Shown here: positions 7,674-63,975 of the stretch, in pieces
How positions within the stretch are numbered: the stretch's first letter is position 1
How the letters are laid out: each line of letters opens with the position of its first letter
NCBI GenBank assembly: GCA_046351555.1
Contig: JAXLYI010000006.1
Coordinates: 314,284-378,283, forward strand
DNA: 64,000 bases
Reading direction: 5' to 3'
Source: Polyangiales bacterium
GTDB taxonomy: Bacteria; Myxococcota_A; Polyangia; Polyangiales; Ga0077539
Program-made: the position numbers and the translations under genes
Notes under the pieces: model-generated
Database searches by the model: none
What the model was told of the DNA's origin: nothing
What the model saw: the letters and a program-made list of their open reading frames with translations, nothing else

Positions 7674-9296
<1,623 letters not shown>

Positions 9297-9297
9297 C

Positions 9298-10230
9298 GTG
9301 CGTCTCCTCCCCTCCCTCCTCCTCACGCTCACGCTCTCGCTCGGCTGCGGCGGCGACCCGAACGCGCCCGCGATCCCGCCCGCCGACGACGCGGGCGCCA
9401 CCCCCGACGGCGACAAGACCCCGGCGCCCGACGCGCCCTCGCGCGACTGGGGCCCGCCCGTCGACCCCACCCTCTCGGTGCCCACCTTCGACGCCGCCAC
9501 CGTCGCCCGCGTCCGCGCCCTGCGCGCGATGGGGGCGACGCGCGGCATGCGGCCCGACGTGGTCGCCAAGATCGGCGACTCGATCACCGAGAGCGCGAGC
9601 TTCCTCTCCGACATCGGGCACGGCTGGCACGAGCTCGGCGCGCACGCGTACCTCCAGCCGACGGTGACGTACTTCAGCCGCACGCGCTTCGCCGACGGCA
9701 CCAACTCGCTCAACCGCGCGAGCTCCTGCGCGATGGGCGGCTGGGTGGCCGCCTACGCGCTCGCGATGGACCCGATGAGCGCCCTGCGCAACGAGATGGA
9801 CTACACCCGCCCCGCCTACGCGATCGTCATGTACGGCACCAACGACCTCGACCGCATCGCGCCCGAGGAGTTCACCCGCGACATGACCCGCATCCTCGAC
9901 ATCATCGAGTCGTACGGCAGCGTGCCCGTCATGAGCACCATCCCCGACCGCCTCGACCGCGCCGAGGCCGGGGCGCGCGTGCCCTCCTTCAACGAGGCCA
10001 TCCGCGCGATGGCCGCGTCGCGCCACCTCCCGCTGATGGAGTTCTGGCGCTCGCTGCAGGACCTTCCCCGCAAGGGGATCGACCCCGACGGCATCCACCC
10101 CTCGGCCTACGTCTCCAACGGCAACGTCGCGTGCGGCGTGCTCACGCCCGACGGGCTGCGCTTCGGCTACAACATGCGCAACCTCGTCGCGCTCTTCGCC
10201 CTCGACCGCCTGCGCAACCTCGCGCAGTAG
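9298..10230 (+). CDS. SGNH/GDSL-family hydrolase lipoprotein.
   Basis: The lipobox is LSLGCGG. Block I is KIGDSITES, block III is MYGTNDL, and block V is DGIHPS. Confidence 0.75.
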   Translation: MRLLPSLLLTLTLSLGCGGDPNAPAIPPADDAGATPDGDKTPAPDAPSRDWGPPVDPTLSVPTFDAATVARVRALRAMGATRGMRPDVVAKIGDSITESASFLSDIGHGWHELGAHAYLQPTVTYFSRTRFADGTNSLNRASSCAMGGWVAAYALAMDPMSALRNEMDYTRPAYAIVMYGTNDLDRIAPEEFTRDMTRILDIIESYGSVPVMSTIPDRLDRAEAGARVPSFNEAIRAMAASRHLPLMEFWRSLQDLPRKGIDPDGIHPSAYVSNGNVACGVLTPDGLRFGYNMRNLVALFALDRLRNLAQ

Positions 10231-10232
10231 GG

Positions 10233-11252
10233 TCAGTCGCGCGGGTCGTCGAGCCCGAGCGCGCGCTCGGCCAGGAGGCACGCACCGCCGAGCGCCGCCA
10301 GGCCCACCAGCAGCGCGAAGAACAGCAGCGACGTCGCCACCGCCGCGTCGGGCCGCACCCCCACCAGCCCGAACATGTACTGGAACACCAGCTCCCGCTG
10401 CCCCACGCCCCCCGGCGTGAGCGGCACGTACGTCGCCAGGATCACCGCCGGCACCACCCGCGCGCACACCAGGAACGACACCCCCGGCGCGAGCGGCCGC
10501 ACCAGCAGCGCCACCGACACCACGGCCATCCCCTGCGTCCCCACCGACTGGAGCACCGAGAGCGCGAGCCCCGCGTACGAGCGCGGCGAGGGCACGCCGA
10601 GCAGGAGCCCCCCGAGCACCGGCACCCGCCCCACCAGCGCGCGCAGGCCGTCGAAGCGCTTGAGCGCCCACGGCGCCGTGAGCACCGCCGCCGAGAGCCC
10701 GAGCGCGCCGAGCAGCCCCGCCTCGAGCAGCGTCGCCACCGCGTCGTCGCGCATCTCGTCGCCGAGCAGCATCGCCGTCGCCGCCACGATGCACAGCCCG
10801 AACAGCCCCGCCACGCGCTCGAGGAACGCCACCGTCAGCGACGACGCCATGTCGGGCATCGCCCGCGGCACCACGCGGTGCGCGCGCACCCCGTCGCCCG
10901 CCACGCCGCTTGGGAGCATGTTGAAATAGAGCCCCACCAGGTAGTGCCGCAGCAGCGTCGGGAGCGGCGGCGTCGCGGTCGCCCCGTACGCGCGCATCAT
11001 CGTGCGCCAGCGCGCCGAGGCGATGGCCGTCGACGCGAGCACCGCGCCGAAGGCGAGCGCGAGGTTGCCCGGGCCCACGTCGCGCGCCCGCGCCAGCACG
11101 TCGGCCCAGGCCACGCGCCGCGTGAGCCACGCGATGGGGAGCAGCGCGAAGAGCGCGCGCAGCGCGGTGCCGGCCGGGCCCTTCCACAGGGCGGCGAGGC
11201 GCGAGGGGGGCGCGGCGGCCTCGGGCGCCGGCGGCGGGTCGGGGGGGCTCAC
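10233..11252 (-). CDS. Integral membrane protein of the lysylphosphatidylglycerol-synthase TM-region / UPF0104 (flippase-like) family.
   Basis: It has about 8 predicted TM helices and the family-typical motif LRHYLVGLYFNMLPSGVAGDGVRA. It is directly downstream of the kinase gene at 11254..13548, on the same strand. Confidence 0.65.
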   Translation of the reverse strand: MSPPDPPPAPEAAAPPSRLAALWKGPAGTALRALFALLPIAWLTRRVAWADVLARARDVGPGNLALAFGAVLASTAIASARWRTMMRAYGATATPPLPTLLRHYLVGLYFNMLPSGVAGDGVRAHRVVPRAMPDMASSLTVAFLERVAGLFGLCIVAATAMLLGDEMRDDAVATLLEAGLLGALGLSAAVLTAPWALKRFDGLRALVGRVPVLGGLLLGVPSPRSYAGLALSVLQSVGTQGMAVVSVALLVRPLAPGVSFLVCARVVPAVILATYVPLTPGGVGQRELVFQYMFGLVGVRPDAAVATSLLFFALLVGLAALGGACLLAERALGLDDPRD

Positions 11253-11253
11253 G

Positions 11254-13548
11254 CTACGAAGAGAAATCCATGCGGACGGGCTGGCGCGAGCCCGGCGCGA
11301 CGGTGATCGTCTGCGTGCGGGTGCCGCGCTCGGGGTTGACGCAGCGGACGGTGTGGCGCCCCGGCGCGAGCGGGATGTCGCGCGTCGGCGTCTGCCCGTA
11401 CGAGCGGCCGTCGACGAAGGCCTCGCACCACGCGCCCGTCGCGCCCACGCGGATCGTGCCCGGCGTCGCGTCCTGCGGCGGTGGCGGGGGCGGAGGCGGA
11501 GGCGCGTGCGCCACGGCGTTGGCGGCGCGCGGCGCGAGGTGCATCGTGCGGACGGCCACCGTCTGCCCCGCGGCCGGGCGCAGGTAGCGGGTGACGCTCT
11601 CGTAACCGGGCGCGCTCGCGGTGACCACGAGGGGGCTCGGCCCGACCGTCACGCGCACGCGGTAGGGCCCGCCGCCGGTGAGGTCGCGCTCGCCGACGCG
11701 GAGCGACGCCGACGCGGGCTCGGTGGGCACGTTGATCCACGCCTCGTTGGGGCCGAGCGGGCGCTCGCGGAGCGCGAGGTCGCGGGCCTCGACGCGCCCG
11801 GGCGCCGCGGTGAAGGTGAAGGCCTCCTCGATGTGATCGGGGCTCCGCACCACGACCGTGTGCTCCACGCCGGGCCGCAGGTCGCGGACGGTGAGCGGCG
11901 TCACCCCGGGCGCCTCGCGGCCGTCGACGAACACCTGCGCCCCCGGCGGCGCCGTCCGCACCTCCAGCACCGCGACGGACGCGGCCGCCTCGCGCGCGAG
12001 CGTCGCGCTCACCTCGGCGCGTGTGCCGGGTGAGGGCAGCGCCACCTCGCGCTCGTCGGGCGCGTAGCCCTCCGCGGTGAGCCGGACCCGGTAGCGCGCG
12101 CGCGGGCCCGTGGCGAGGCCGGTGAGCTCGTGCGGCGTGCGGTGCGAGGTCGGCGCGCCGTCGAGCCAGACGTGCGCACCCGCGGGCTCCGAGCGAACCG
12201 CGATGACGCCGTCGTGCACCACCGCCGCGGCCGCGGGGGCCTGCGTGCGGCCGTAGACGTAGTAGCCGCCCGCGGCGAGCGCGGCGAAGGCGAGGAGGAC
12301 GCCGGCTGCCGCCCAGGGGGGCCGAGGCGAGGCGGCGCGCGGGGCGACGGAGACGGTGCCCGACACCTGACGCTCGTCGTCGTCCGCGGCGGGCGCGAGG
12401 CGGTCGGAGGCGGCCTTGGCCTCGGCGATGAGCCCGTCGTGCTCGGCGAGGCGCTCGGCGAAGAGCATGGTCATCCACTCGCCGAGGCCGACCTTCGAGA
12501 CGGGGATGTGGTCGGCGCGGGCGACGGACTCGAGGTCGGCTTGGAGCTCGCGCGCGCTCTGATAGCGGGCCGCGCGGTCGGGCGCGAGGGCCTTCACGAT
12601 CACCGCCTCGAGGGCCGGCGAGACGCGCGGGTTCACCTCCGAGGGCCGGGGGTAGTCGCCGTCGGTGATCAGCTTGATCGTGTCGGCGTCGGAGGGCGCG
12701 CGGAAGAGCCGGCGGCCGGTGCACAGCTCGAAGAGCATGATGCCGAGCGAGAAGATGTCGCTGCGGTGGTCGAGGTCGTCGCCGCGGGCCTGCTCGGGCG
12801 ACATGTACGGGATCTTCCCCTTCACCTTGCCGGGCCCGGTGCCCTCGTCGAGGGAGTTGAGGCTCACGTGCGTGTCGCGGCGCACCTCGCCCGAGGCGTG
12901 CTCGGAGCCGCGCGGGGGCGCCGTCCGCGTGGCCCCGCCCGCCACAGGCGACTCGGCCTTCACGAGCGACGCCTTGGCGATGCCGAAGTCGACCACCTTC
13001 ACGTCGCCGGTGAAGGTGACCACGACGTTCTGCGGGGAGACGTCGCGGTGGACGACGCGGAGGGGGTTGCCCTGCAGGTCCTTCTTGTCGTGCGCGTAGG
13101 CGAGGCCCGCGGCGACGCCGATCCCGACGGCGAGCGCGTGCTCGAGCGGGAACTCCGTCACCCCCTTGGGCTTCATCGCGCGGACCACGGCGCGGAGGTC
13201 CTCCCCGTGGATGTGCTCCATCGCGATGAAGAACTCGCCGTCCGCCTGCCCGACGTCGAACACCGTCACGATGTTCGCGTGGGCGAAGGTCATCGCGATG
13301 CGCGCCTCCTTGAGGAGCATCTCGACGTAGCCCTTGTCGCGGCCGTACTCGGGCAGGATGCGCTTGATCACCAGCAGCCGCTCGATGCCCGCGATCGACT
13401 TGTGGATCGCGAGGTAGAGCACCGCCATCCCGCCCGCCGCGAGCCGCCGCACCAGGGTGTACTTGCCGAAGCGACGCGGGAGCGCCTCCTCGGTGGGCGC
13501 CGGGGCGTCGGGGCTGTTCGGCGCGGGGCGCGCGGCGGCTTCGGGCAC
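11254..13548 (-). CDS. Ser/Thr protein kinase with a non-canonical catalytic loop (HRDVSPQN), an extended activation loop, one TM segment, and C-terminal PEGA domains.
   Basis: Motifs: VIKRIL (beta3 Lys), VVHRDVSPQNVVV, DFGIAKA followed by about 45 extra residues and then PYMSPEQ. PEGA-like repeats include VRSEPAGAHVWLDG...TPHEL and TAPPGAQVFVDGREAPGVTPLTV. Confidence 0.85.
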   Translation of the reverse strand: MPEAAARPAPNSPDAPAPTEEALPRRFGKYTLVRRLAAGGMAVLYLAIHKSIAGIERLLVIKRILPEYGRDKGYVEMLLKEARIAMTFAHANIVTVFDVGQADGEFFIAMEHIHGEDLRAVVRAMKPKGVTEFPLEHALAVGIGVAAGLAYAHDKKDLQGNPLRVVHRDVSPQNVVVTFTGDVKVVDFGIAKASLVKAESPVAGGATRTAPPRGSEHASGEVRRDTHVSLNSLDEGTGPGKVKGKIPYMSPEQARGDDLDHRSDIFSLGIMLFELCTGRRLFRAPSDADTIKLITDGDYPRPSEVNPRVSPALEAVIVKALAPDRAARYQSARELQADLESVARADHIPVSKVGLGEWMTMLFAERLAEHDGLIAEAKAASDRLAPAADDDERQVSGTVSVAPRAASPRPPWAAAGVLLAFAALAAGGYYVYGRTQAPAAAAVVHDGVIAVRSEPAGAHVWLDGAPTSHRTPHELTGLATGPRARYRVRLTAEGYAPDEREVALPSPGTRAEVSATLAREAAASVAVLEVRTAPPGAQVFVDGREAPGVTPLTVRDLRPGVEHTVVVRSPDHIEEAFTFTAAPGRVEARDLALRERPLGPNEAWINVPTEPASASLRVGERDLTGGGPYRVRVTVGPSPLVVTASAPGYESVTRYLRPAAGQTVAVRTMHLAPRAANAVAHAPPPPPPPPPQDATPGTIRVGATGAWCEAFVDGRSYGQTPTRDIPLAPGRHTVRCVNPERGTRTQTITVAPGSRQPVRMDFSS

Positions 13549-13645
13549 GGGCTTCTCTGCGCTTCAGCGCGGTGGGGCGGGCGTGGACGTCGGGCGAGGT
13601 GCGAGACCCCGCGCGGGCGCCATCCTACGGTTTGTCACCCCCCTG

Positions 13646-15808
<2,163 letters not shown>

Positions 15809-54671: not shown

Positions 54672-57593
54672 TCAGCCGTTGCGCGATTCGAAGCGCTGCG
54701 CGCCGTCGCCCTTCCACCACTCGACGTAGCGCTGGTGGGCGCGCTCGCGGTCGCGCTTCGGGAGGTTGAAGTAGTAGCCGAAGTACTGGCCCGTGAGCCG
54801 CTTGAGCTCCTCGCTGGCCTCGTGGCGGACGGCGGGCTCCGGGTGCAGGAGCGCGTCGATGAGCCACACCACCCGGTGCTGCTGCCCCGAGCGGCCCCAC
54901 CACGTCACCCAGGGCGCGGCCATCGCGCCGAAGTCCTGCCGGGTGATCACCGTGAGCGCGCGGTGCGCGGCCTCGACCACGCCCGCGTCCGCGTCGCCGA
55001 GCGCGGCCACCAGCGCGGGCACGGCCTCGGCGTCGCGCAGCTCGCTCAGCGCCGCGGCGGCCGCACGACGCGCGGCGGCCCGCGGGTCGGAGAGCGACGC
55101 CCGCACCGCCCGGCCCGCGCCCTCGAACTCCTCGAAGCGCTGGTGCGCCCGGAGCGCGTCGACCGCCGCCGCGCGCACGGCGTCGTCGTCGTCGAAGAGG
55201 CGCGCGACCAGCGGCGCGATCGCCGACGGGTGCGCGCACTCGCCCAGGCACGCGACCGCGCAGTAGCGGACGTCGGGGTCGACGTCGTCGAGCGCCTTCA
55301 CCAGCCGAGGCGCCGCGGCCTGGCGGAACGCCACCACCGCCCGCAGCAGCGGCGCCCCCTCGTCGAGCGCCGCGGCGCGCGCGCCCGGCTCTGCCCGCCG
55401 CGGCCGGTGCGGCCCCGGGAAGGCGCGGAGCAGCGCGTCGAGCCCCGCGTCGCCGTGCGCGAGCAGCGTGTCGAGCGCGCCGGGCACCGGGGAGCTCCCT
55501 TCGAGGAGTTCGCGCACGACGGAGGCGCACACGTCGCCGGGCGCGCGGACGGGCGTGGCCTTGAGCCCCGGCGGCGGCGCCTCGCGGCCCACCTCGGGCT
55601 CGACGGGCCGGTCGCTCCAGAGGGGCGGCGGCGCCGAGGTGGCGGGCGCGGGCGCGTCGGACGAGAGCGCGCCGCGCAGCGCGTGGAGCCGGGCCGAGCG
55701 GTCGGGCAGCGGCGCGCGCTCGACGGGGCGGGCGGAGGTGGCGAGGGTGATCTGCGGCTGGCTCGCGCGGTTGGGGCGCTTGCGGGCGGCGATGAGGCGC
55801 TCGAAGGCCGCGGCGCAGCGCTTGATGAAGGCGTCGAGTTCGCGCACGGCGAGGGCCGTCGGCGCGCGCCGCCCGTTGTCCGCCCAGAGGAGCAGCGCCA
55901 CCTTCGCGCCGATGCGCACGGGCGCGACCACCACCTCCTCGGCGACGGGGCGCTGGAGCCGGGCGCGCACCTCGGCGTCGAGCGTGTCGGGCTCGACGCG
56001 CGCCACCTCCACCGCGCCCGACTCGAACGCGAGCCGGAAGGTGGAGGGGCGCTCGAGTTCGAAGGACACGCCGCGCAGCGCCGCGCCGAGCGCGCCCTCG
56101 CCGAGCGCCGCGACGCCCGCGCCCTGGGCCCCCTGCACGACGAAGAGGGCCGCGTAGGCGAAGCGCTCGTGGACGTGCGCGAGCATCGCGTCGACGACGG
56201 CGTCGCGGTCGTGCGCGGCGTCGAGGCGGCGGAGGGCGTCGTCGAGGGAGATTCCTCGCGGCGGCGGCGGCAGCGACGACAGGCGGACGTCGTGGAGCAG
56301 TCCGTCGCCCCCCTCGAGCAGCACCTCGATCGCGGGCGGCGGCATCGAGGCGATCACCCCGCGCGGGAGCCGCGGCTCGCCGGGCAGGAGCGGCGTCGGC
56401 GGCAGCGACTCGGGCGCCGACGTGGGCGCGGCGGAAATCGCGGCGGGCACGGGCGCGCGCTCGGGGGCCTCGGGCGAGCGCTGCGAGGGGACGGCGCGCG
56501 CGGCCACCGAGGGGGCGGGCAGGATCGCGGGGCGCGTCGCGGGCGGCGGGTCGGTGGGGAAGCCCATCGGCGGCGGCGGCGACGCGGGCCGGGCGATCGC
56601 GGGCGCGGACGCGCGGGGCTCGACCGAGGCCGCGGAGATGCGCACCTCCACCGAGGGCGCGGTGGCGCGCGCTTCGACCACGGGCGCGGGCGTCTGCGCT
56701 TCGAGCGCGGGTGACGACGTGCGCGGTTCGATCGCGGGTGCGGACGTGCGCGCCTCCACCACGGGCTTCTCCGCGGGCCTCTCCGGGGGCGGGACGGAGG
56801 GCGTCCCGAAGGGCGGCGTGGTGGTGGGGAGGTTGAACGCCATCGGGTTGACGGCGGGCTCGACGCGCGCGGGCTCGACGCGCACGGGCTCGACGCGCGC
56901 GGGCTCGACGGAGGGGCGGACGATCTCCGGGGCCGAGCGGCGCAGGCCCGGCGGCGGCGCGGGCTCCGACGGCGGCGGCTGCGACGAGCTGCCGTCGTCG
57001 TCGTCGTCGTTGAGCATCGCGTCGAGGGCGGCGAAGGCGTCGAGGGCGGGCGTCGAGGTGCGCGCGCCGTTGCGCGGGCGGACGAGGGGGACGATCACCT
57101 CCGCGGGGATGGGGCCCGGCGGCACGGTGGAGAGGCGGCCGGCGAGGCGCTCGAAGCGCGGCGGGAGCGGGAGCTGGTAGTAGCGCCAGAGGGCCCACGC
57201 GAGGCGGACGGAGGTGACGCAGCGGGCCTCGAGCGGGAGCTTCACCGTGGCCTCGACCTCGGCGCGCGCGGCGGGCTCGACAGGCGCGGCGACGGCGACG
57301 ATGAGGCGCCCCGCGTCGATGAAGAGGGCCGCCATCCGGTGGCGCTCGGCGAGCGCGCGGGGGAGGCGCGCGATGGCCACGGGGTCGGCCTCGGCGACGT
57401 CCTCGCGGGTGGCGTGCGGGAGGCCGTGGACGGCGGCGCAGTAGCGGGCGAGCGTGTCCTCGCCGATGGCGCCGCCCTCGAGCAGGCTCGTCTCGAAGTC
57501 GCCGCCGTTGATCACCTGGCGCGAGATGGCCTCGTCGATCGCCTTCGGCGAGACGACCTGATCCTGCGTGAGGAGCGCCGAGAGGAGGGACAT
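54672..57593 (-). CDS. Large multidomain protein with an N-terminal T2SS-E N-terminal-like (GSPII_E_N) domain, a long Pro-rich linker containing EPARV tandem repeats, a central domain, and C-terminal HEAT repeats.
   Basis: It begins MSLLSALLTQDQVVSPKAIDEAISRQVINGGDFETSLLEGGAIGEDTLARYCAAVHGLP. C-terminal HEAT-like units include DPDVRYCAVACLGECAHPSAIAPLVARLFDDDDAVRAAAVDAL. The track ORF extends to 57644, and the first Met in it gives MTRSRPVG. Confidence 0.65.
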   Translation of the reverse strand: MSLLSALLTQDQVVSPKAIDEAISRQVINGGDFETSLLEGGAIGEDTLARYCAAVHGLPHATREDVAEADPVAIARLPRALAERHRMAALFIDAGRLIVAVAAPVEPAARAEVEATVKLPLEARCVTSVRLAWALWRYYQLPLPPRFERLAGRLSTVPPGPIPAEVIVPLVRPRNGARTSTPALDAFAALDAMLNDDDDDGSSSQPPPSEPAPPPGLRRSAPEIVRPSVEPARVEPVRVEPARVEPAVNPMAFNLPTTTPPFGTPSVPPPERPAEKPVVEARTSAPAIEPRTSSPALEAQTPAPVVEARATAPSVEVRISAASVEPRASAPAIARPASPPPPMGFPTDPPPATRPAILPAPSVAARAVPSQRSPEAPERAPVPAAISAAPTSAPESLPPTPLLPGEPRLPRGVIASMPPPAIEVLLEGGDGLLHDVRLSSLPPPPRGISLDDALRRLDAAHDRDAVVDAMLAHVHERFAYAALFVVQGAQGAGVAALGEGALGAALRGVSFELERPSTFRLAFESGAVEVARVEPDTLDAEVRARLQRPVAEEVVVAPVRIGAKVALLLWADNGRRAPTALAVRELDAFIKRCAAAFERLIAARKRPNRASQPQITLATSARPVERAPLPDRSARLHALRGALSSDAPAPATSAPPPLWSDRPVEPEVGREAPPPGLKATPVRAPGDVCASVVRELLEGSSPVPGALDTLLAHGDAGLDALLRAFPGPHRPRRAEPGARAAALDEGAPLLRAVVAFRQAAAPRLVKALDDVDPDVRYCAVACLGECAHPSAIAPLVARLFDDDDAVRAAAVDALRAHQRFEEFEGAGRAVRASLSDPRAAARRAAAAALSELRDAEAVPALVAALGDADAGVVEAAHRALTVITRQDFGAMAAPWVTWWGRSGQQHRVVWLIDALLHPEPAVRHEASEELKRLTGQYFGYYFNLPKRDRERAHQRYVEWWKGDGAQRFESRNG
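56857..56911 (-). repeat. 15-nt tandem repeat (gggctcgacgcgcgc, about 3.7 copies) encoding (R/P)VEPA repeats in the Pro-rich linker of the gene at 54672..57593.
   Basis: Read directly on the plus strand: gggctcgacgcgcgc gggctcgacgcgcac gggctcgacgcgcgc gggctcgacgg. Confidence 0.75.
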
Positions 57594-57656
57594 CGCGTGT
57601 TCAGGCCCGCGGGAACCATCGCCCACCGGGCGCGACCGTGTCAACGCGCGTGCATT

Positions 57657-60204: not shown

Positions 60205-60825
60205 ATGTCGATCGTCGTCGGCCCGCCCGGTGCGCTCGTCGCCATCGAGGGCATCGATGGCGCGGGCAAGACCACGCAGTCCCGCCGCCTCGCCGAGGCC
60301 CTCGCAGCCGACGGCTACGAGGTGGTGCGCACCCACGAGCCCACCGACGGCCCGTGGGGGCGGCGCATCCGCGCGTCGGGGGAGACGGGGCGCCTGTCGC
60401 CGCGCGAGGAGTTCGAAGCCTTCCTCGAAGACCGCCGCGAGCACGTGCGCGACCTCCTCGCACCGTCGCTCGAAGCGGGGCGCGTGGTGCTGGTCGACCG
60501 CTACTACTTCTCGTCGATGGCCTACCAGGGCGCGCGCGGGCTCGACCCCGCCGTCATCCGCGCGGAGAACGAGCGCGTCGCCCCGCGGCCCGACCTGCTG
60601 GTGATCCTCGAGATCGAGCCCGCCGCGGGCGTGGCGCGGGTCAACGCGCGCGGCAAGGGCAACCTCTTCGAACGCGAGGACGACCTCCGGCGCGCGGCCG
60701 CGATCTTCGACGCGATCACCGACCCGGCGCCGCTGCGCCTCGACGCGACGCGGCCCGAGGGGGAGCTCACCAAGGAGATCCTCGCGGCGCTGCGCGGGGT
60801 GCTCTCGCACAAGAAGCTCGGGTGA
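60205..60825 (+). CDS. tmk: Thymidylate kinase.
   Basis: The P-loop is IEGIDGAGKTTQ. The DRY-type motif is LVDRYYFSSMAYQGARG. The lid is ARGKGNLFERED. Confidence 0.9.
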   Translation: MSIVVGPPGALVAIEGIDGAGKTTQSRRLAEALAADGYEVVRTHEPTDGPWGRRIRASGETGRLSPREEFEAFLEDRREHVRDLLAPSLEAGRVVLVDRYYFSSMAYQGARGLDPAVIRAENERVAPRPDLLVILEIEPAAGVARVNARGKGNLFEREDDLRRAAAIFDAITDPAPLRLDATRPEGELTKEILAALRGVLSHKKLG

Positions 60826-60837
60826 GCGGTCACCCCG
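60822..60837 (+). terminator. Short GC hairpin (gggtga-gcgg-tcaccc) between the convergent tmk and Toprim-like genes. It is a candidate bidirectional terminator but very close to both stops.
   Basis: Read directly. It is a 6-bp stem with a 4-nt loop and no U-tract. Confidence 0.2.
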
Positions 60838-61426
60838 GGTCTGGCGCCGGCGGTTCGCGGAGCATCGCGACGACCTTGCCGACCAGGTAGCCGAGCGACG
60901 GGACCGCCGCCAGGAGACTGGCCCGTTGCTCCGCAGTCAGCCGCCTCGCGGCGAGCTTGAAGAGGATGTCACGGCTCGCCACGTCCTTGCGCTCGATGGC
61001 CAGCGCGAAGGCCTCCTCGCGCCCCTGGACGGCGCCGAGCGAACGGAGCCCGACGAGGACGCTCTCGGTGTTCTGCTCGATCAGCACCACGCGCAGGAGC
61101 GACGCGGGGTCGCACCCTCGCTTGATCGCCTCGGTCACCCTGACCTTGCACGCGTCGAGCGCGAGCTTCGCCATCGACCGCACCCGGTCGTTGTCGAACA
61201 CCGCGACCACGACGTGGCCCGTGCGCGTCAAGCGTGGAAGCTCCTGGCGGCACGCAGTCCAGACCTTGCTGTTGCCGTTCTTCGGGTACCCGCGGAGGCG
61301 GTCCTTCAGCGCCCAGGGTTCGCAGCCCAGCCGGTCGGCCACGCAGCAGACGACGAGGTCGTGAAGCCCGAACTCCGCCCGCTCCCCCGCGGAGTCTTCA
61401 TAGAGAAGCGTCACCCCCGGGAGCAC
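60830..61426 (-). CDS. Small Toprim-like (DUF4435/OLD-type) putative nuclease partner of the upstream ABC ATPase.
   Basis: The first motif, LLYEDSAGERAEFGLHDLVV, gives the conserved Glu in a VEG-like position. The second, HVVVAVFDNDRVRS, gives the DxD motif. Both are spaced as in Toprim domains. It is 198 aa and its start abuts the ATPase stop. Confidence 0.5.
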   Translation of the reverse strand: MLPGVTLLYEDSAGERAEFGLHDLVVCCVADRLGCEPWALKDRLRGYPKNGNSKVWTACRQELPRLTRTGHVVVAVFDNDRVRSMAKLALDACKVRVTEAIKRGCDPASLLRVVLIEQNTESVLVGLRSLGAVQGREEAFALAIERKDVASRDILFKLAARRLTAEQRASLLAAVPSLGYLVGKVVAMLREPPAPDPG

Positions 61427-63154
61427 CTACGCCTCCGTCCTCGTCATCACCTCGGCCTCGTAGCCTGCGTCGAGGATCCGGCCGAGCCCGTCATAGTCCT
61501 TCAACCAGTCGTCCAGCGCGGCCCGATCGGGGTAGCGCAAACGGGTGGCGCCGTCCTCGTCGAGCTCGCACAGCACGGCGGACGTGGCCGGGTCGCGGAG
61601 CTCGTCGAGCAGCCGTCGCGAGTGCGTCGCGAGGAGCACCGGGCTGCGCTCCGAGATCCGCTGGAAGAAGCCCACCACGCGCGCGAGCAGCCGAGGGTGG
61701 AGGTGCACCTCGGGCTCGTCGAACACCAGCAGCGAGCGCTTCGAGGGCAGCCGGAACATCGCCACGAACGCGAGGTACGCGAGCGTCCCCTCCGACAGCG
61801 CGGCCGCGGGGACCTGCTCGTCGCGGCCCCGGAGCTTCACCCACAGCGCGATCGAGCCGCCCGCCGGGTCGGCGCGGGTGTTGACGGACTCGACGCGGTC
61901 GCCGAGGCCGAGGCGCACGTAGTCCATGGTCTCGCGCCAGTGCTCCTCGCCCACGTCCGAGCGGAGCGCGTGCCAGGCGTTGGCGAGGTTGAGGCCGAGC
62001 CGCTCGACGCTCGAAGCCGACTGGATGAGCGACGACCCGCGCGGGATGGAGGGGCGGCCGTGCGCGCGGCTCACCCAGCCGGGCGTGACCTCGAAGGGGA
62101 CGTGGACCTCGATGTTCTTCAGCGCCGCCGCCATGCGAGAGATCGCGGGGTGCGGCGGGTTCAGGCCGAAGGAGGTGAGCGCGAGGGCGTCCTGGGGGAC
62201 GGTCTGCGATCGCCTGCGTTGTTCGAGCGCATGGGGCGCCCAGGCGCCGGTGGGGTCGCGCTCCAGGAGGACGGCCGAGAGGGGCGGGTCGTCGGGGTAG
62301 CCGAGGGTGAGCCGCTCGTACGAGACCACCGCGCCTCCGCCGGCGGGGGCGAGCCGGAGTTCGTAGTGAAGCGGCGGGCCTGCGCCGTGGACTTCGACGG
62401 CGAGCGCGAGCTCCCGGGCCCCGTGCCGAAGCAGCAGCCGGAGGCCGCCGTGGATGGCGTTGAGCTCGTCGACGAAGGCGGGCGAAGCGACGCGCCGGAG
62501 CAGCTCGCACGCCTCGACGATCGTGCTCTTCCCCACGCCGTTCTCACCGATGAGAACGATGAGCCCGTTCAGCGCCAGATGCGCCTGCGCCACCGTGCGG
62601 GCGCCCCGAACCGTCAGGGCGCGGATCACGTCGGGGCGCGCCGAGGTTTGCACGTCGACGGGCCACAGCGCGCCGTACGTTTCGCGCCACTGCGCGTGGG
62701 CTTCCGCGATCTCGCCGGCGCACTCGAGCCGGACGGCGTGCTCCGCCACCGCGGCGCGCGCGTGGAGCCAGAGGGCGGGGTGCTTCGCGGCGAGCAAGCG
62801 CAAGACGTCGCGCACCCGAGCGCTCGTGCGAGGCGCGCCGCCCAGACTCACAGACGCGGCCATCGCGCCGACCGACTCGACGGAATCCCCACCGGGCGCG
62901 GACGCGATCAAACACGCGACCAGCCGGGCCAGCGACGCCGCCGGCGCAGCAATCGCTCCCTCCTCCGGCGTCAGAGACTCCGCTCCCCCCGCGCCACCTT
63001 CCGCGTGCGCGGACGCCAACGTTCGACTCAACGCTTCGAACGCCTCTTCGATCGTCGGCAGCTCGTTGCGTGCGGTCGTCACGGGCCTCGTGCGGGTGTA
63101 TCGCGCACCGTCGGGCGTGGTCAACGCTCGCGTCTCGATGACCCCTACCGCCAC
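61427..63154 (-). CDS. ABC-type ATPase of the AAA_15/AAA_21 (OLD / AriA / GajA-like) class. The N-terminal extent is uncertain.
   Basis: The Walker A is LIVLIGENGVGKSTIVEA. The Q-loop/signature region is AALSEGTLAYLAFVAMF. The Walker B plus H-loop is LLVFDEPEVHLHP...LLATHS. The start was chosen at the in-frame GTG just downstream of the upstream lipoprotein gene, but the true start may be later (for example MAASVSL). Confidence 0.7.
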   Translation of the reverse strand: MAVGVIETRALTTPDGARYTRTRPVTTARNELPTIEEAFEALSRTLASAHAEGGAGGAESLTPEEGAIAAPAASLARLVACLIASAPGGDSVESVGAMAASVSLGGAPRTSARVRDVLRLLAAKHPALWLHARAAVAEHAVRLECAGEIAEAHAQWRETYGALWPVDVQTSARPDVIRALTVRGARTVAQAHLALNGLIVLIGENGVGKSTIVEACELLRRVASPAFVDELNAIHGGLRLLLRHGARELALAVEVHGAGPPLHYELRLAPAGGGAVVSYERLTLGYPDDPPLSAVLLERDPTGAWAPHALEQRRRSQTVPQDALALTSFGLNPPHPAISRMAAALKNIEVHVPFEVTPGWVSRAHGRPSIPRGSSLIQSASSVERLGLNLANAWHALRSDVGEEHWRETMDYVRLGLGDRVESVNTRADPAGGSIALWVKLRGRDEQVPAAALSEGTLAYLAFVAMFRLPSKRSLLVFDEPEVHLHPRLLARVVGFFQRISERSPVLLATHSRRLLDELRDPATSAVLCELDEDGATRLRYPDRAALDDWLKDYDGLGRILDAGYEAEVMTRTEA

Positions 63155-63975
63155 ACCGCCTGCATTGCGTTGACGTCGCTGCTGCACCCGGCGCGGCCGG
63201 CGCCGCCGCAGAAGGGGCGGTCGCCCCAGGCGCGCTCGCCCGGGTAGCCGAAGGGGCTCAGGTCGTCGACGAAGTCCGCCGCGCCGTGCGACGCGCGCTC
63301 GCCCACGTTGGCCCTCCCCCGCGGCAGCCCCTCGCGCTCGACCGCCGCCTCCACGCGCTCGCCGCGGCCGTCCATCGCCTCGGCGCAGCCCACCGAGGAG
63401 TACGGCGACCCGTGGCCGTCGACCCGCGTGTCGAAGTACGGGTGGTGCTTGCCCGCGCTCAGGAAGATCACCGGGTGGCGCCCGTCGGCGAAGCGGAGCG
63501 CGTGGGTCGGCCAGCCGAAGCCCCAGGCCCACAGGTGACGCAGCGACGCCGCGCCGTCGCGCAGGTCGATGGTGAGCCGGAGGTACTGGTTGTCGCCGGG
63601 GTGGGCGCTGCTGCACACGCCCGACTCGACGTAGCCGCCGTCGTCGGCGAAGAGGTAGGCGTAGCGGAGCTCGACGGAGGCCGCGCCGCACGCGCCGAGC
63701 GGCGTCACCTGGTAGGGCGTCGCGGGCTCGCTCGGACGGCGGGCGTTCTCGCGGCTGTCGAAGACGAAGAGGGGCGCGTACCAGCGGGCCAGGGCGTGCT
63801 CCACCTCGTCGTCGAGGCAGTCGCCATCGCGGTCGCGCGCGCGGTCGTCGGTGAAGGCCTCGCCCGCGAGCGGCATCGGGTCGGCGGCGCCGGGCATGCC
63901 CGCGGCGTCCCAGTCGTCGAAGTCGAGCCCGCACGCCGCCACGAGCGGGACGGAGGCCGCCAGCACCCATCGCAT
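63145..63975 (-). CDS. Hypothetical lipoprotein.
   Basis: The start is placed at MRWVLAASVPLVAACG (lipobox), with a globular Asp/Gly/Trp-containing body. The track ORF starts at 63999 and may extend upstream toward the window edge. Confidence 0.45.
   Translation of the reverse strand: MRWVLAASVPLVAACGLDFDDWDAAGMPGAADPMPLAGEAFTDDRARDRDGDCLDDEVEHALARWYAPLFVFDSRENARRPSEPATPYQVTPLGACGAASVELRYAYLFADDGGYVESGVCSSAHPGDNQYLRLTIDLRDGAASLRHLWAWGFGWPTHALRFADGRHPVIFLSAGKHHPYFDTRVDGHGSPYSSVGCAEAMDGRGERVEAAVEREGLPRGRANVGERASHGAADFVDDLSPFGYPGERAWGDRPFCGGAGRAGCSSDVNAMQAVWR

Follow-up and report, generated by a model that had tools for sequence, protein, structure and literature searches.

The window analysed here is a stretch of 64,000 nucleotides (nt) from the genome of a Polyangiales bacterium (assembly GCA_046351555.1, contig JAXLYI010000006.1, positions 314,284 to 378,283 of the forward strand). 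Close to its end lies a pair of minus-strand genes encoding an ATP-binding cassette (ABC) ATPase of 551 amino acids (aa) and, directly downstream, a Toprim-like protein of 198 aa. Here, we show that this pair is a split OLD-like module, which is built like PARIS and HEC-01 but is a member of neither. Gene structure, domain identities, conserved catalytic residues, linkage and co-variation were all observed in this study. As for function, we hold with slightly more confidence than doubt that the pair, as a split OLD-like module, probably provides a nuclease-based anti-phage or abortive-infection defence, a reading that draws on analogy with better-known systems. The two genes and their junction are located as follows:

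61427-63082, minus strand: ATPase gene, 551 aa, encoding a predicted relic domain of the cGAS/DncV-like nucleotidyltransferase (CD-NTase) type and, fused to it, an ABC ATPase of the AAA_15/AAA_21 class; ends with TAG (61427-61429)
60830-61426, minus strand: small gene, 198 aa, encoding a standalone Toprim-like predicted nuclease; starts with GTG
61432-61436, minus strand: GGAGG ribosome-binding site of the small gene, inside the end of the ATPase gene and 5 nt before the GTG, read from the sequence

Both open reading frames, proposed in a preliminary description made from the sequence alone, are real minus-strand genes, as seen from the many homologues of both proteins and from a G+C content at third codon positions (GC3) of 0.77-1.0 in the called frames. 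GC3 is 0.77-0.83 over the first ~450 nt of the ATPase gene, which encode the CD-NTase relic, 0.87-1.0 in the ATPase core and 0.87-0.97 in the small gene. The TAG of the ATPase gene is followed at once by the GTG of the small gene, and this abutment, together with the GGAGG 5 nt upstream, indicates translational coupling. That the two frames are separate and abutting was rightly described, and the split is kept in all 13 related loci. The start of the ATPase gene had to be moved. It had been placed at GTG 63154, which makes the gene overlap with the gene upstream; we prefer GTG 63082 because it is preceded by a GAGG ribosome-binding site and because the 551-aa gene-caller product of the identical protein P0015 and the homologues P0016 and P0017 start there. 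The GC3 pattern of the ATPase frame also shifts at about 63160, and the part upstream fits the frame of the neighbouring lipoprotein gene.

The ATPase and its Toprim-like partner

The 198-aa protein was earlier said to carry Toprim-like E...DxD motifs. The fold model and the geometry of the motifs bear this out; the sequence homology that was to be sought with hidden Markov models (HMMs) for DUF4435 and Toprim_OLD was not found, nor does any Toprim or DUF4276 sequence model recognise the protein, and the Toprim call rests on structure. No model in Pfam, PADLOC, NCBIfam or PHROGs matches the protein, and a scan of 76 relatives against Pfam and PADLOC returned scattered noise only. Its profile found nothing meaningful among the PDB sequences, and a Foldseek search of its model against the PDB was uninformative. 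Close homologues number 14 among 5.8 billion proteins, while a profile search retrieved 611 cluster representatives (50% identity), nearly all of them 180-215 aa long. The few named members all come from Polyangiales or Deltaproteobacteria and are all annotated as 'hypothetical protein'.

In the AlphaFold model (pLDDT 88.4), strands at residues 5-10, 44-49, 72-78 and 111-116 alternate with helices in the succession typical of Toprim domains and are followed by a helical C-terminal half. The features that define the Toprim fold are all seen: a four-stranded parallel sheet with helices, a glutamate after β1, a glycine after β2 and a DxD motif after β3. We counted conservation over 76 diverse family members. 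E10, D78, D80, R152 and D153 are invariant (76/76), H22 and N119 are found in 74 members, and D11, E121 and R168 in 73; G51, located after β2, is kept in 67 of the 76 (88%) and K147 in 61. The candidate active-site residues map to the following positions:

61394-61399, minus strand: E10-D11 at the end of strand β1 (model strand 5-10), the Toprim glutamate position
61187-61195, minus strand: D78-N-D80, the DxD motif at the end of β3 (model strand 72-78)
61064-61072, minus strand: N119-T-E121 after β4, proposed counterpart of T506-x-E508 of BpOLD
60968-60973, minus strand: R152-D153, within the helical region at the C-terminus; together with K147, candidates for the equivalent of the catalytic lysine of OLD

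In BpOLD, the two-metal site is made of E400, (E404), D455, D457, T506, E508 and K562, of which T506-x-E508 provides the ligands of metal B (PMC6755086). The conserved residues of the family follow the same order, namely E10, (D11), D78, D80, N119, E121 and K147/R152. From this order, rather than from a superposition, we infer a residue-by-residue equivalence to the BpOLD site. Taken together, the modelled fold and its conserved residues indicate that the small protein is a Toprim-like predicted nuclease of an unannotated, mostly myxobacterial family.

Four cysteines of the small protein (C28, C59, C93 and C105) are invariant in its 15 closest relatives and are kept in 51-75% of the wider family. 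A zinc site made of these cysteines was considered and dropped, as many relatives have Leu, Val or Ala in their place. The wide replacement suggests that they probably pack the core and do not form a universal metal site.

The ATPase module and its motifs, read from the sequence and numbered on the 551-aa protein, are as follows:

61430-62632, minus strand: ABC ATPase module (residues ~151-551), free of coiled-coil insertions
62522-62548, minus strand: Walker A, GENGVGKST (K185); K185 and S186 invariant in 53 homologues
61784-61798, minus strand: ABC signature-like LSEGT; G432 invariant and S430 at least 90% conserved in the same 53 homologues
61694-61732, minus strand: Walker B and D-loop region, LLVFDEPEVHLHP (D455, E456); E456 invariant in the 53 homologues
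61619-61630, minus strand: H-loop or switch histidine, ATHS (H487); T486, H487 and S488 invariant in the 53 homologues

Thus the Walker A, signature-like and Walker B motifs that had been noticed earlier were all located. The segment DEPEVHLHP had been taken for Walker B plus H-loop; it does hold the Walker B, but its HLHP is the AAA_21-typical continuation into the D-loop, and the H-loop is the ATHS motif about 25 residues further on. The pattern DEP[ED]xHLHP is widespread among AAA_21-type ATPases of many phyla. Since all motifs are present and the key residues are invariant, the ATPase appears to be catalytically intact and is probably active.

The assignment of the ATPase to the OLD/AriA/GajA class (AAA_15/AAA_21) agrees with three kinds of match. 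Pfam returned AAA_21 (9e-26) and AAA_15 (6.5e-12). In PADLOC the affinity is to defence ATPase families: the best match is HEC-01A (PDLC04177, 5.7e-34; residues 191-562 of a 575-aa query aligned to positions 21-384 of the 393 in the model), seven more HEC-01A models match below 1e-12, and weaker matches are made by AriA (PDLC02980, 3.1e-25), PDC-M07A, AbiLi, mad3 (7e-16), Old and NsnB. In the PDB sequence search, the best match was the Thermus enzyme TsOLD (6p74, 5.7e-6). The PADLOC check that had been proposed for the pair therefore came out positive for the ATPase and negative for the small protein. A housekeeping protein of RecF/SbcC type with long coiled coils had been named as the finding that would speak against this class. 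In the model, the head is compact, with inserts rich in beta structure, and lacks a long coiled coil; the NCBIfam recF score is 24.7 bits where the cut-off is 172, and the Pfam matches to SMC_N, RecF/RecN and ABC_tran are confined to the Walker A region. These features, together with the affinity of the sequence to defence families, argue against a role in genome maintenance, which is weighed further below.

Relation to known ATPase-Toprim systems

Pairs of an ABC ATPase with a Toprim protein are a recurrent defence architecture, known from OLD, Gabija, PARIS, AbiL, MADS3-4 and HEC-01. The ATPase studied here passes the HEC-01A model, but the partner that defines each known system is lacking: the pair has no DUF4435, no DUF4276 and no fused polypeptide.

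The nearest named candidate is HEC-01 ('Hma-embedded candidate 01'), which consists of the ABC ATPase HEC-01A and the TOPRIM protein HEC-01B (PADLOC; Payne et al., bioRxiv 10.1101/2024.01.29.577857). The likeness lies in a cassette of two genes, of which the first encodes the ATPase and the second a standalone Toprim protein of ~200 aa, in the match to HEC-01A over nearly its full length and in a predicted metal-binding Toprim site comparable to that of BpOLD. It is therefore conceivable that the pair is a very divergent but true member of HEC-01 or of MADS Mad3-Mad4, in which case the small protein would be a fast-evolving DUF4276 Toprim and the label, though not the mechanism, would change. 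In addition to the HEC-01A matches, several observations favour this possibility. At a locus in a Saccharimonadales metagenome-assembled genome (MAG), L011, which served as positive control, a relative of the ATPase (27% identity) overlaps by 4 nt with the gene of a 203-aa partner that matches both DUF4276 (1.5e-28) and HEC-01B (1.1e-17). Both types of partner are ~200 aa long, stand in the same gene order, begin with a strand followed by a glutamate and have an xTE motif after a late strand, and one of the 76 members of our family hits the PADLOC HEC-01B model at E 0.013.

On the other side, the L011 partner shows that HEC-01B corresponds to DUF4276 and that the libraries detect DUF4276 where it is present, while none of the 76 members reaches DUF4276 in Pfam at E<=1. 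Aligning the 76-sequence family profile to a 39-sequence DUF4276 alignment with hhalign gave a probability of 0.55% over 23 C-terminal columns only, and aligning the family to a single DUF4276 protein gave no similarity. DUF4276 has a single conserved aspartate (D73) where the partner family has DxD, and the extra N-terminal CD-NTase relic further sets our ATPase apart from HEC-01. For MADS, the likeness consists of the broad ATPase family, of a small Toprim-type protein that follows it and of the PADLOC mad3 match; MADS3 (NF047739) is also the top NCBIfam match, but it scores 68.3 bits against an equivalog cut-off of 420, the partner is not DUF4276, and no other MADS genes are adjacent. Membership in HEC-01 or MADS is thus unlikely in our view, though it deserves to be kept in mind, and at the sequence level the partner is a distinct Toprim family, for which a very deep relationship to DUF4276 is possible. 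As a separate observation, the PADLOC model PDLC04144, which is labelled HEC-01B, matches the ATPase (1.8e-12) and not a Toprim protein, from which it follows that the HEC-01B label spans heterogeneous models.

PARIS, which consists of AriA and AriB and has been proposed as class 4 OLD, resembles the pair in that an AAA_15/21-class ATPase and a Toprim protein are encoded by separate, adjacent and co-evolving genes in the same order. Were the pair PARIS proper, anti-restriction proteins would be its cue and a Toprim nuclease that cleaves tRNA would be released. The likeness to PARIS drawn in the preliminary description does not extend to identity. AriB, at 35 kDa, is a Toprim nuclease of the DUF4435 type (PF14491), whereas the partner found here, with 198 aa, is well short of that size, and no DUF4435, AriB or OLD-like_TOPRIM (PF20469) match was obtained for it or, among the matches listed, for its 76 relatives. 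The AriA match of the ATPase is limited to the generic AAA_21 C-terminal segment, and HEC-01A scores higher over its full length. Moreover, the modelled partner is nearer to the Toprim-plus-helical regions of OLD classes 1 and 2 than to AriB, and the pair was not found on phages or satellites in the collections searched. We therefore give PARIS proper very little credence.

OLD proteins of class 1 (P2 Old, TsOLD) and class 2 (GajA of Gabija, BpOLD) share with the pair the class of the ATPase, and the predicted fold of the partner, with its conserved residues in the order E, DxD, (T or N)xE and a basic residue, is that of the OLD Toprim-plus-helical region. Unlike in these proteins, the ATPase and the Toprim protein are separate polypeptides here, and the latter has no OLD-like_TOPRIM match in Pfam. 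Gabija further differs in that no UvrD-like GajB partner is found within the window.

A CD-NTase relic at the N-terminus of the ATPase

The ATPase core is preceded by a domain that was overlooked in the preliminary description:

62633-63082, minus strand: N-terminal CD-NTase-relic domain, ~150 aa, with six helices (residues 11-139); CdnD-like, without the nucleotidyltransferase beta-sheet core

The six helices are confidently predicted in the model. The extension is found in the window ATPase and in ten relatives (551-648 aa) and is missing from the ~400-aa proteins of the Sorangium type. When a profile of ten N-terminal domains was compared with all PDB sequences, the top three matches were chains of CdnD-type nucleotidyltransferases (E 0.01-0.039), and the matches are colinear at both extremes, with profile positions 1-33 on CdnD 1-33 and positions 202-232 on CdnD 269-299 of 300. 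Consistent with this, the PADLOC 'Cyclase' models of the cyclic-oligonucleotide-based anti-phage signalling system (CBASS) match the N-terminal domains, PDLC00809 in ten of ten (best 6.9e-6) and PDLC00823 in nine of ten. The domain of the window protein taken alone gives weak Cyclase matches (0.012 and 0.054), and the match is stronger in relatives, reaching 1.1e-4 in a 70%-identical relative and 7.7e-6 in a long form. For the N-terminal domain Pfam returned only SMODS at E ~0.2, and the link to CD-NTases is established by the Cyclase models of PADLOC together with the profile search of the PDB.

About 104 residues that are kept in the 635-648-aa forms are absent from the window protein and its two closest relatives, and the deletion falls exactly at the expected nucleotidyltransferase beta-sheet core. 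In the long forms, the segment where GS...DxD is expected reads G/D/R-G...PRPLFAFVL and has no conserved acidic pair, and the cyclase models match the terminal helices only. These three observations lead us to conclude that the N-terminal domain, as judged from its sequence, is a degenerate CdnD-like CD-NTase scaffold that is almost certainly non-catalytic. Compared with the CdnD-like CD-NTases of CBASS (PDB 6p82, 6p8u), with which it shares the fold and sequence homology, the pol-beta-like core G[S/G]...[D/E]x[D/E] is thus deleted in the window protein and degenerate in its longer relatives.

Such homology raises the question of whether the pair could work by CBASS-like signalling, with the N-terminal domain making a second messenger that activates the Toprim nuclease. 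The missing core essentially excludes this for the window protein, and the loss of the acidic dyad speaks against it in the long relatives. The genomic setting differs from CBASS as well: here an ABC ATPase is fused to the domain, and Pfam found no Cap or effector genes around L001, L003, L085, L088 or the window, where the check is partial as only 0.9 kb of sequence upstream of the ATPase falls within the window. CBASS-like signalling is therefore scarcely credible. A full-text literature search found no paper that combines CD-NTase, ABC ATPase and TOPRIM.

Linkage, genomic context and proposed role

The small gene stands directly downstream of a homologous ATPase gene on the same strand in all 13 distinct loci, with a junction spacing of -4 to +2 nt where genes were called. 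The long, fused ATPase is found in the window (= L089), L085, L088, L001 and L003, and a short ATPase (~400-450 aa) in Sorangium (L004/L008, L005), Nannocystaceae (L006), L007, Myxococcaceae (L010), Pyxidicoccus (L171), L172 and Polyangium (L170). A genome scan with the ATPase alignment, which was dominated by generic AAA_21 ATPases, contributed at least six new true relatives, found L004 again and returned one DUF4276-type comparator. Identity to the window proteins drops in parallel for ATPase and partner (71/67, 62/60, 51/37 and 40/33%). The two genes are a conserved, co-varying and strictly linked pair.

The genes on either side are not part of this unit. In the window (G+C ~75%), the pair is flanked by a lipoprotein-like gene on one side and, on the other, by tmk, which converges on it:

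63145-63972, minus strand: lipoprotein-like open reading frame with lipobox LVAAC
60205-60825, plus strand: tmk (Thymidylate_kin in Pfam, 1.9e-42)

The flanks are unrelated between genera. The lipoprotein gene and tmk stand beside the pair only in the window's own genome, and pairs that are 67-71% identical adjoin other genes (Lactamase_B, unknowns) and not tmk. The pair behaves as a unit that relocates between lineages, and its insertion at the window site, as described earlier, is a possibility. Exact-protein look-ups of tmk and of P0001 (the nearest database protein to the window, 99% identity, from a Polyangiales MAG) for an orthologous empty site gave no match. Among the relatives that tmk retrieved from metagenomes, none exceeded 64% identity over a partial match (58% over the full length) or had neighbours in common with the window, and no empty site was seen. 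No tRNA, integrase, att-like repeats or flanking repeats beyond chance were found at the window locus, nor any promoter or convincing terminator matches.

Some further observations concern the window itself. The stop codons of tmk and the small gene are 4 nt apart (60823-60832), and as no terminator-like structure lies between them, transcripts from either side would run into the opposite gene. The G+C content dips slightly to 0.70-0.71 at 60750-61750 (small gene and 3' end of the ATPase gene) against 0.73-0.82 elsewhere in the profiled region. Further off, a 990-aa open reading frame (54672-57644, minus strand), located upstream of rsmE- and prmA-like genes, contains a long stretch rich in proline and alanine in which VEPxRVEP and SAPAxEPR-like units recur.

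Other observations concern the relatives. In Sorangium, the pair and its upstream flank are syntenic between strains So ce1128 (L008 ~8830-14150) and So ce513 (L005 8833-8861) at ~90% nucleotide identity; in So ce1128 the pair is directly followed by a gene of 5.3 kb (1728 aa, with PNP_UDP_1, NA-iREase3, pentapeptide and WD40 domains) that is absent from So ce513, and the site downstream of the pair looks like a variable hotspot. The long-form pair of L001 (3958-11615) is surrounded by XisH/XisI, by PDDEXK_2 and by a further ATPase (AAA_21-DUF3696), beside which an unannotated protein of 214 aa is encoded, and these surroundings may be a small defence or conflict island. In Pyxidicoccus xibeiensis (L171 10023-11936), the next gene downstream of the pair, on the same strand, encodes an SF1 helicase (AAA_11/AAA_12, SMUBP-2-like); the arrangement recalls GajA-GajB of Gabija, and coincidence is possible. 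The partner in Polyangium aurulentum (CP079217.1, L170 9236-9550) has decayed: of the profile, positions 3-71 and 174-189 remain, the DxD and NxE region is gone, and the gene is called at 104 aa. Its decay suggests that the nuclease is dispensable in some lineages.

Several points weigh against a defence function. HEC-01 gave no protection in E. coli (bioRxiv 10.1101/2024.01.29.577857), and at least one OLD-family ATPase, the archaeal Cran1, is reported to have its role in the cell cycle and not in defence. The small protein is unmatched in plasmid, phage and IMG/VR collections, the neighbourhoods hold mostly housekeeping genes (tmk, prmA and rsmE at the window; trpA/trpB and others elsewhere) rather than clear defence islands, and the Sorangium pairs are vertically conserved and syntenic. 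Apart from the result on HEC-01, these same points would fit a housekeeping pair that acts in repair, recombination or the cell cycle, like Rad50-Mre11, SbcCD, RecF or Cran1. Against such a role in genome maintenance stand the features of the ATPase described above, the different context in every genus, the decay of the partner in Polyangium aurulentum and the patchy, rare distribution of the family. We consider a housekeeping pair improbable, though far from negligible.

Alternatively, the pair could be a toxin-antitoxin-like or selfish addiction module, in which a Toprim toxin is neutralised by the ATPase and no dedicated anti-phage role exists. The tight, translationally coupled two-gene cassette would suit such a module, Pfam describes AAA_21 as 'putative AbiEii toxin, Type IV TA system' (TA, toxin-antitoxin), and XisH/XisI and PIN/MazE genes occur near some relatives. 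The flanks of the window pair lack the signs of mobility sought there, and the family is not on the plasmids searched. Moreover, toxin-antitoxin behaviour and abortive-infection defence are compatible with each other. We rate an addiction module as decidedly improbable.

If the pair is indeed a nuclease-based defence, PARIS, whose nuclease is retained on an ATPase scaffold until it is triggered, offers the best mechanistic template. By analogy with PARIS, OLD and Gabija, the physical interaction of the two proteins, the sequestration and release of the nuclease, its defence role and its substrate may be pictured as follows. An oligomer of the ATPase would bind the nuclease and keep it inactive. 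The ATPase would sense an infection cue, and a further surface for sensing or assembly may be contributed by the degenerate CD-NTase domain. ATP binding or hydrolysis would then release or activate the Toprim nuclease, and the released nuclease would cut nucleic acid, either DNA or tRNA.

A more specific and rather doubtful extension of this scheme is that the dead CD-NTase serves as a decoy or sensor that mimics a CBASS cyclase. Phage factors that attack CD-NTases, or the ligands of CD-NTases, would trip the ATPase and thereby the nuclease, and the module would form a guard layer that backs up CBASS, in which parts of two unrelated immune systems are joined. The small Toprim family would then be an unrecognised effector class, largely of Myxococcota.

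Few designs in bacterial immunity have been as successful as ABC ATPase-Toprim modules, and the locus adds two new elements to them. One is a Toprim partner family (the 611 clusters above), to date met with in Myxococcota, that is unrecognised by the model libraries searched; as no library model exists for it, tools such as PADLOC would report the ATPase only, as an orphan. The other is an ABC ATPase that, in one subclade, captured the scaffold of a CBASS cyclase, which was then hollowed out. We would like to point out that K185 and E456 of the ATPase and E10, D78, D80, N119, E121 and R152 of the predicted nuclease are offered as residues for mutagenesis. Should the relic domain be neither a sensor nor a decoy, the locus would be a routine member of a crowded class. 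If it is one or the other, the pair would be a case of one immune system reusing part of another.

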